From contig NC_134475.1 in assembly GCF_964194025.1 (NCBI RefSeq), positions 41,788,001-41,852,000 on the forward strand: a DNA stretch of 64,000 nucleotides, given 5' to 3'. Under the pieces are notes generated by a model, which was not told the origin of the DNA, made no database searches, and saw nothing but the letters and a program-made list of their open reading frames with translations. The stretch comes from Convolutriloba macropyga. Its lineage: Eukaryota. Of the stretch, positions 39,709 through 42,053 are shown piece by piece. The position numbers and the translations under genes were made by a program. The stretch's first letter is position 1. Each line of letters begins with the position of its first letter.

Positions 39709-42053
39709 TTAGACGGGAGAAATTGGATTATCTCCATTTTCTTCTATTGCAGCATTGTTTTCATGTCTCTCATTTCTAATTGCACTATATAATGGGTGCG
39801 GAATATGTGGATATAAATTAAAATGTGTTTCTTTCATTTCAGTTACTAAATGCTCAGCATCATCTGGCTGTTTTTCATTGGTTGGCTCATTTTTAAAGAT
39901 AGAAGTCATAATAGAAGTGAACAGAATATTATAAGTGGCAAATAAGATGATTTTCCCAAAATTAACAGAAGCTCCAGTTATTTTATGTATTTGTAGGGCT
40001 TTTACAATTGTTACAACAATTTGAATAATAAATTTCAAGAAAATAAAAGCGGCAAAATAAATTCCACATTGCTCTAAGATAAATTGTGTATAACCGAACA
40101 TTTCTATATAGCGGTTATCAAAGAAATTAGGAGAAATAAAAGAGTCTAAGTAGACTGTTCTCATTGGATAGTTAAGATAAGTTCTATCCTCATTTTTAAA
40201 ATTATCTTGAGAAACAACAAGTTCTTTAGAGAAAGTTTGTATAGCATCTTTCATTTCGTTATTGAATTTAATTCCGCGCCAAAATTTCTTTAATTCTTGA
40301 TCAGTAAATAAATATATTTCATCACTATCCTGGAATTTGTATTTAGTTAATCTTTGTGGAGCAATATTAGGCTCAAAAACAGAGGGTCCTTTGACTCTAG
40401 TTATACCCGGTCTTAATTCAACCCAGGAGTTATCATCTTCAATATCTAATTGGAATAAATTATCGTGTTTATCTACACATGATCGTTCTTCAGCGCTAGT
40501 GTATGTCTTTCTAGTAATTGGATCAACGAAATGTATTTTATTTTGATACATTATTGGAATTCTATTATAACATTTCTCCATAATTTGTAAGGGTGAGAAA
40601 TACTGTGGGCAATGATATAGCCATGCAACATTATCATTTGTCTCTAAGAACATTGAGCGATTATTTGTTAGTAAGAATCCAGCCATACGTGGATTACTAT
40701 GCGAATAGACTAAATTTCTTCTCTTTATAGCACGTTCTAACTCACAATCGGTTTTTATCATTTGTAAATCTAAAAGCTGTAGTCTTCTTATATTAGTATA
40801 TTCGTAATAGTCAAATTTCGTTCCCATATGGGCTTCATAATTCATTCCTGAGTGCAGATCAATATTTGGCTCTCCATTTGTATATGAAGTTCGTTTTACG
40901 AGCAATTTGCCTCTTGTGCTATTTACATAAGTATTTTTTACAACATTTGAAATTGGTTTTTTTGCCTTTCCTGTATCCATATCGAATCCTCCTTCATAAT
41001 GTATATATAATGAGCTATAAGGAGTAGGATAAACTATTTTGTTTGAGTCGCAAATTGACTGTGGATTATTATAAATCTGAAAAATGAAGGTATTTCGTGG
41101 CCCTTTAAATGGTTGCGCACGTCTAATAACAGCTTCTGTTGATTCAGGTTCAGTTTCATATTCTCTTACTATATAATATTTTCTATCTATTTGTATCATT
41201 TTTACTGGAGCTGTGTGTAATTCTTCTATTATACAATTTTCTCTATTTTCCCATGTATATGCATAAGGATCAGTTGATCCACTGTCACAGCCATTTTTGT
41301 TTAGGCTACAAGGCAGAGGAATATTATAATGGTTATTTACCGTTCCATCTTCTAAATTTACTAGTAATTTAATATCTTGCATATATGTCTCGTAAGTATC
41401 GTGGTAGATCCATCCTGTTTCTGTGCACTCATTATTGTATTTATCACTAACGTCGCCCTTATTTATAACTGTTTGTTTCTTTACATTTTTTTTTTAAATG
41501 GAACTTTGTTAGTGTTAATAGTCGCGGAGCCTGTTTTCTTAGCTTCGAGACATTGCTCGGCTGTTAATTTAATATCTGAGCTAATAGTTGCTTGTGTAGC
41601 GGATAAACCACTATCGTCAAAAGTATCACAATACCACTTTAGGCGTTGATGTGTAGCTTTACACATAGTTGCTTCTAATTTAGTCTTATAATTGCGCTGC
41701 ATAATAGTAGCAGTTGCCTCGCTTACTTTTATTTTCTCAGTATCGATATCGCATGGAGCTATTTTGTTTAATGAGTACATTTTATTAGAATCTATTTTAG
41801 AACAATCAAAGTGTCCTACTTTTACTTTCTTTAGAGTATTTTTAAATTCGGAGTCTGCGTTGGCTCCATTTATTGAAAGTAGTGTGGAAAATATTAGAGG
41901 TACAATTACAGGTACTCTCATATTGAAAGGGTAGAAGTTTGAACAAAGAAGAATTATAAATTTACTTACTTCAATTATTTCGTCCAACACTTCTGGATCG
42001 GGCTCGGGGAACTGAAAGCTGGTTAGCTCAACTGTTTCTTGTTCTGAATTCAT
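39709..42053 (-). pseudogene. env: Env: class III fusion glycoprotein of chuvirus / herpesvirus-gB-like type, one frameshift in an A10 run
   Basis: Signal-like MRVPVIVPLIFSTLLSINGANA; GHFDC..YSL..C..MQ..MCK..WYC..C..TG, YTW..C, HMGTKFDY, CELER..NP, C..CY..IP..FVDP.T cysteine pattern; two C-terminal hydrophobic segments. Frames join at 41486-41495. Confidence 0.82.

Follow-up and report, generated by a model that had tools for sequence, protein, structure and literature searches.

A broken envelope gene in a young Ty3/Gypsy family whose intact Env is a predicted class III fusogen

In the window, the whole 64,000-nucleotide stretch of Convolutriloba macropyga DNA that was analysed, the minus strand from 39709 to 42053 carries what is very probably the broken env gene of a young Ty3/Gypsy family, the intact Env of which is a predicted class III fusogen that likely carries particles from cell to cell. 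Within this explanation, an internal promoter and a set of accessory roles are proposed with less confidence than the whole.

The element and its broken env gene

The element lies on the minus strand, with the following features in order of coordinate.

38403..38838 (−): 3′ LTR of 436 bp (TGTA...TATA), identical to the 5′ LTR; ends set by the flanks of other copies
38956..39577 (−): ORF4, an orphan downstream of env; unbroken copies encode 198 aa, and here a frameshift near 39200 interrupts it
39709..42053 (−): env, a predicted class III (gB/chuvirus-type) fusogen, from PF24664, the fold of an unbroken sister copy, hydropathy and cysteines
42055..42273 (−): 72-aa ORF, its stop one base ahead of the first env ATG
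42333..42600 (−): likely internal promoter, with four CCAAT boxes and an LTR-like TATA box
42646..46851 (−): pol, RT-RNase H-integrase and a C-terminal p58/SH3 module (RVT_1, RT_RNaseH, Integrase_H2C2, rve, Integrase_p58_C)
46852..47430 (−): TARG1/OARD1-like macrodomain within pol, from the match of sister copy L049 to human TARG1
47431..48332 (−): N-terminal part of pol, an aspartic protease (Asp_protease_2, E 0.008, under the cut-off) followed by a dUTPase-like stretch
48302..49597 (−): gag; pol overlaps it by 30 nt, in the −1 frame
49976..49995 (−): primer binding site, pairing with the 3′ end of host tRNA-Met(CAT)
49999..50434 (−): 5′ LTR, common to this copy and a truncated upstream copy; from the 5′ LTR of other copies
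50435..51444 (−): 3′ remnant of a second tandem copy, with the last env codons and an open ORF4 (50552-51175); from the 1446-bp repeat, 99%

The Pfam domain order of pol, PR-RT-RH-IN, is that of Ty3/Gypsy (Metaviridae). BEL/Pao-type Pfam families were absent from the gag and pol matches at E up to 1 and 5; Peptidase_A17 and DUF1759 are families of BEL/Pao (Belpaoviridae). Gag has no Pfam match above the cut-off, and the stretch after the protease, which we take by eye to be dUTPase-like, has no Pfam match. LTRs of 1.4 kb containing the end of env were considered and rejected; the LTRs of other copies measure 424-437 bp, and their 5′ LTR matches just the first 436 bp of the 1446-bp repeat. The window copy shows no target duplication, because its 5′ end is the tandem remnant of a second copy. 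Host tRNA-Met genes that match the primer site form long tandem arrays at G000:C1:77669826-77767007 and C4:55016751-55131164, with 96 pattern matches overall. The mitochondrial COX1 of the host follows the invertebrate code, AGA standing for Ser, ATA for Met and AAA for Lys as judged by context; this argues against the codes of cnidarians, tunicates, vertebrates, and rhabditophorans or echinoderms.

The env gene occupies two overlapping minus-strand frames, 41481-42065 (194 aa from stop to stop) and 39709-41493 (594 aa), which join at a single-base run, 41486-41495, where the gene is broken. Each piece exceeds the curated cut-off of 27 bits for PF24664 (Monjiviricetes_fusion), the first scoring 41.5 bits at E 5.8e-11 over profile positions 25-125 and the second 77.3 bits at E 8.6e-22 over positions 308-621. 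All six motifs named in an earlier note on this DNA are found in env, some with looser spacing than was written. That note started the gene at 41921, which is the second methionine and is followed by a signal-like hydrophobic stretch; the start has to be moved, since an in-frame ATG, the earliest, exists 44 codons further upstream, at 42053. The segment between them (41922-42053) encodes an acidic 44-aa leader ahead of the signal-like stretch, similar to the long leaders of retroviral env. A related family described below, the sister gB family, has such a leader too.

The break had been described as the only lesion and as a possible sequencing error that would leave env intact. It is the only lesion of env itself, but not of the element: pol is frameshifted near 47100 and runs into an in-frame stop near 46852, both lesions being in the macrodomain region, and the ORF4 frameshift lies outside any base run. 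An assembly error at 41486-41495, with env whole at this locus and the element otherwise defective, is a real possibility although an unlikely one. The break sits in a long single-base run, three of the four env frameshifts found when 18 copies were compared with the naturally unbroken copy L002 fall in runs of at least 5, and contigs of four other data runs that cover the break read differently from the window. Those contigs, however, merge many copies and say nothing about the window locus in particular, and single-base runs are favoured by natural slippage as well. The 18 comparisons (L016, in the wrong orientation in the alignment, was left out) also contained 357 substitutions and four premature stops. 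Premature stops in 4 of 18 copies, together with the pol stop, which a run-length miscount does not explain, and the ORF4 frameshift outside runs, argue that real decay is under way. Since pol is frameshifted and interrupted by a stop and ORF4 is broken, correction of a sequencing error alone would not restore the element. The window copy is probably dead and tandem-derived.

Predicted fold of Env

The protein of L002, with an env of 736 aa that scores 109 bits on PF24664, was modelled from 37 sequences. The model is of middling quality (mean pLDDT 63.9, pTM 0.34). In a Foldseek search of the PDB, 39 of the 39 listed matches were herpesvirus gB (best E 2.2e-12), and in a viral library the top matches were chu-like, xinmo- and rhabdo-like glycoproteins (best E 6.1e-28, at 10-17% identity). 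VIA, a search independent of Foldseek, ranked gB first with a Z of 7.6, a value below 8 being weak on its own (rmsd 26.7 over 360 aligned residues), followed by Chandipura G and thogotovirus GP. We take all three of these proteins to be class III.

Whole-chain TM-scores against gB and the viral-library matches were low, 0.14-0.25, with large rmsd, probably because the monomer model gets the relative placement of the domains wrong. Single domains fit better, namely the PH-like domain of gB (4ot1, rmsd 2.7 over 77 aligned residues) and domain IV (5ys2, rmsd 4.1 over 146). The modelled architecture is gB-like, comprising a beta-rich fusion module, a PH-like domain, a long central helix and a crown. 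Fourteen ectodomain cysteines are conserved, each in 86-100% of aligned rows, and a hydropathy scan gave a signal-like stretch and two C-terminal hydrophobic stretches. The alignment contained no furin site in the ectodomain. The tip of the candidate fusion-loop hairpin, read from sequence, is partly polar, and N-glycosylation sequons number only two. Searching the PDB by sequence with env returned nothing useful (at most one chance match), and the Atlas has no entry for env or ORF4. The assignment of a class III (gB/chuvirus-type) env to a Ty3/Gypsy backbone, made in the earlier note, is upheld by PF24664 and by the structure matches of the unbroken sister copy; run on that natural env, the Foldseek check gave no best match of class I, class II or non-viral kind. 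These results support the prediction that the Env of unbroken copies folds as a class III (gB/chuvirus-type) fusogen.

Copies, age and selection

Searching the animal's own genome with env gave 404 candidates, 40 of which were scored, and 41 matches at 91-100%. Of the 20 best-scoring loci of those 40, 13 have env as a single open frame, and in the remaining 7, which include the window, it is broken; because the best-preserved loci were chosen, 13 of 20 is an upper bound on the intact share. Gag and pol are each open in sister loci. In all seven other full copies examined, the LTR pair has 0-4 mismatches, and 4 bp of target sequence are duplicated; therefore, their integration was recent. The family is young, multi-copy and recently multiplied, and purifying selection acts on its env (dN/dS 0.18 and 0.23). 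Relatives of env in protein collections numbered 56 in one search and 909, at E up to 0.001, in another.

A sister gB family (L115-L117 and L126) is 86-88% identical to the window family in RT and 49% identical in env. Further tandem or shared-LTR arrangements of the window family occur at L049/L050 (G000:C6), L012/L030 and L032. At G000:C3:41121577-41172005, roughly 50 units follow one another in tandem at intervals of about 1 kb, and all of them contain a decayed piece of ORF4; this array is a satellite born from the 3′ end of the element, like the 1-kb remnant in the window.

Relation to known elements and role of env

The earlier note presented a gB-type env on a Ty3/Gypsy backbone as unexpected. 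This pairing is already in print: in Chary and Hayashi (eLife, PMC13524379) it is a main result, such elements being described as widespread in animals. Among the search baits given there were mosquito BEL/Pao chuvirus-like glycoproteins, and the element table has 221 occurrences of ENV_HSV and 1512 elements. The headline pairing is thus known, and the window family adds one more family. The HSV/gB-type errantiviruses, as that text describes them, have the same LTR-gag-pol-env order with a gB ectodomain between signal peptide and anchor, and likewise share conserved cysteines, the lack of a furin site and many near-identical copies. They are defined by uninterrupted gag, pol and env, which the family has and the window copy has not. 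Compared with the elements described in the same text, the window family adds a macrodomain in Pol, two small genes and promoter motifs. The main text of PMC13524379 contains none of the terms macro, promoter, accessory, small ORF, dUTPase or ADP, and the text and supplements contain no acoel or xenacoelomorph term. A literature search by title gave no matching title for acoel elements, for a macrodomain in Gypsy elements or for small ORFs before env; as a search of titles only, it does not establish absence from print. The mosquito element Anakin (bioRxiv 10.1101/2020.02.15.950899) carries the same broad type of glycoprotein on an LTR retrotransposon, but its backbone is BEL/Pao, whereas that of the window family is Ty3/Gypsy.

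Two other accounts of env were weighed against this one. The gene could be a recent capture, in the host lineage, from a chu-like or xinmo-like RNA virus, as has been proposed for Anakin. The closest structures are indeed glycoproteins of chu-like and other negative-strand viruses, and the Pfam family is Monjiviricetes_fusion. Identity to viral proteins is only 10-17%, however, against 28-99% among relatives in the genome and in collections, a span that indicates long residence in retroelements; an ancient acquisition is also argued in PMC13524379. A recent capture therefore seems quite improbable. We also find it very unlikely that the element moves inside cells, with an env that no longer serves infection and is kept for another role, such as a superinfection block or the tethering of particles to membranes. 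The polar hairpin tip, the mere two sequons and the absence of partner glycoproteins from the element would fit such a role, but the full ectodomain, with all its cysteines, and the membrane anchor are under purifying selection, and the family is still multiplying.

The preferred reading remains that of an Env acting in the transfer of particles. Env trimers on budding particles would fuse with a target membrane, probably of the germ line, and the particles would pass into neighbouring cells; the analogy is with Drosophila gypsy, which PMC13524379 discusses. Cell entry of gB-type errantiviruses is stated there as unknown. A young family with many unbroken env genes, a candidate promoter and two conserved small genes offers measurable handles on that entry.

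Expression and the 72-aa gene before env

The pol-env spacer likely holds an internal promoter, as judged from motifs. Four CCAAT boxes lie at 42595, 42537, 42477 and 42429, against a mean of 0.105 in shuffled sequences, none of 5000 shuffles reaching four, and the TATA box of the spacer matches the TATA region of the LTR at 90% over 20 nt. The spacer of the sister gB family holds two CCAAT boxes and a TATA in L116 and L117, while the cluster was absent from both loci tested in the lineage with another env (described below). By eye, an antisense ORF some 120 codons long also seems to lie in the sister-family spacer, at L117:5000-5400. We propose that Gag-Pol would be made from the LTR transcript by a −1 frameshift (gag and pol overlap in sister copies too), and that the 72-aa gene and env would be transcribed from the internal CCAAT/TATA promoter, as in Oikopleura Tor3b/4b; ribosomes would then reinitiate at the stop-start junction after the 72-aa ORF to translate env. 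In Tor3b and Tor4b (PMC4402516), env is expressed from an internal promoter, which in Tor4b lies in the space after pol; there the promoter was shown by RACE and reporters, whereas that of the window family is predicted from motifs.

Among 21 loci chosen from or beside divergent search matches, 20 hold the 72-aa ORF: 8 before a gB-type env, 11 before an unrelated env and 1 with no env found. The unrelated env looks class I by motif, with a furin site and a hydrophobic peptide; that of L127, where class I motifs are visible, has no Pfam or PDB match under E 0.001, and its HA2 matches are weak, at E of at least 0.13. This other env (L121, L127 and L144) belongs to a distant Ty3/Gypsy lineage and has 10 homologues. 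The RT of L121, the sole locus with the other env that has pol, is 28.5% identical to that of the window family, and DNA likeness between the two lineages is limited to the 72-aa ORF. In five comparisons pS was 0.88-0.92 and pN 0.19-0.21; therefore, the ORF is kept as a protein. Its dN/dS is 0.62 against an older copy, L125. The gene is absent from the sister gB family, and so is not needed for a gB-type env. The protein model shows a four-strand sheet in residues 1-45 (mean pLDDT 58.5, best VIA Z 4.2), and no Foldseek match was found at E up to 0.001, so that the fold is uninformative. Its homologues in the protein collection number only three, all close or partial.

A tentative and rather doubtful suggestion is that the 72-aa gene may be a portable envelope companion, co-translated with env and needed for particles to be enveloped, for trafficking or for evading a host block, whatever the fusogen class. 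If it acts with either class of env, the enveloped retroelements of invertebrates would have a general accessory factor in it; together with the TARG1-like domain and a swappable ORF4-LTR block, it would make the family a complex, retrovirus-like invertebrate element whose accessory genes can be exchanged. Bdelloid rotifer LTR elements offer a precedent, as unrelated retroelement lineages within a single genome carry one and the same extra ORF (PMC5408684); the rotifer ORFs encode known enzymes and occupy the ORF3 slot, whereas here a 72-aa orphan stands directly before two types of env.

Macrodomain and ORF4

The macrodomain lies between the protease and RT, and in the copy L049 it matches human TARG1 (4j5q) with an E of 6.1e-06. 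The C-terminal 76 residues align, with Lys and Asp at the positions of K84 and D125 of TARG1/OARD1, counted from the alignment. K84 is the catalytic lysine of TARG1 (PMC8501950). The domain of the element is embedded in Pol, unlike human TARG1/OARD1, and any hydrolase activity is putative. The sister family retains the domain at 37-40% identity, and against L125 the domain has a dN/dS of 0.13.

ORF4 has no Pfam match over its 198 aa. Its dN/dS is 0.05 in two comparisons between subfamilies, and open relatives occur in the sister family at 34-36%. Between two subfamilies, dS is 0.55 in ORF4 as against 0.03 in env, and the LTRs are about 73% alike; the ORF4-LTR block was therefore likely exchanged between subfamilies. 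The macrodomain and the small genes would have accessory functions, probably against host defence.

Other features in the window

On the plus strand, another Ty3/Gypsy element, frameshifted and flanked by 333-bp LTRs of 94.6% identity, occupies 9836-16725; neither of its last two frames (14620-16365) matches a Pfam family. A decayed integrase-bearing element lies at 57000-62300 (+), with an rve match (E 7e-07) at 60482-61399. About 400 bp from the 3′ LTR, at 37315-37983, two repeats spaced by 383 bp each contain a tRNA-Ala(TGC) gene.
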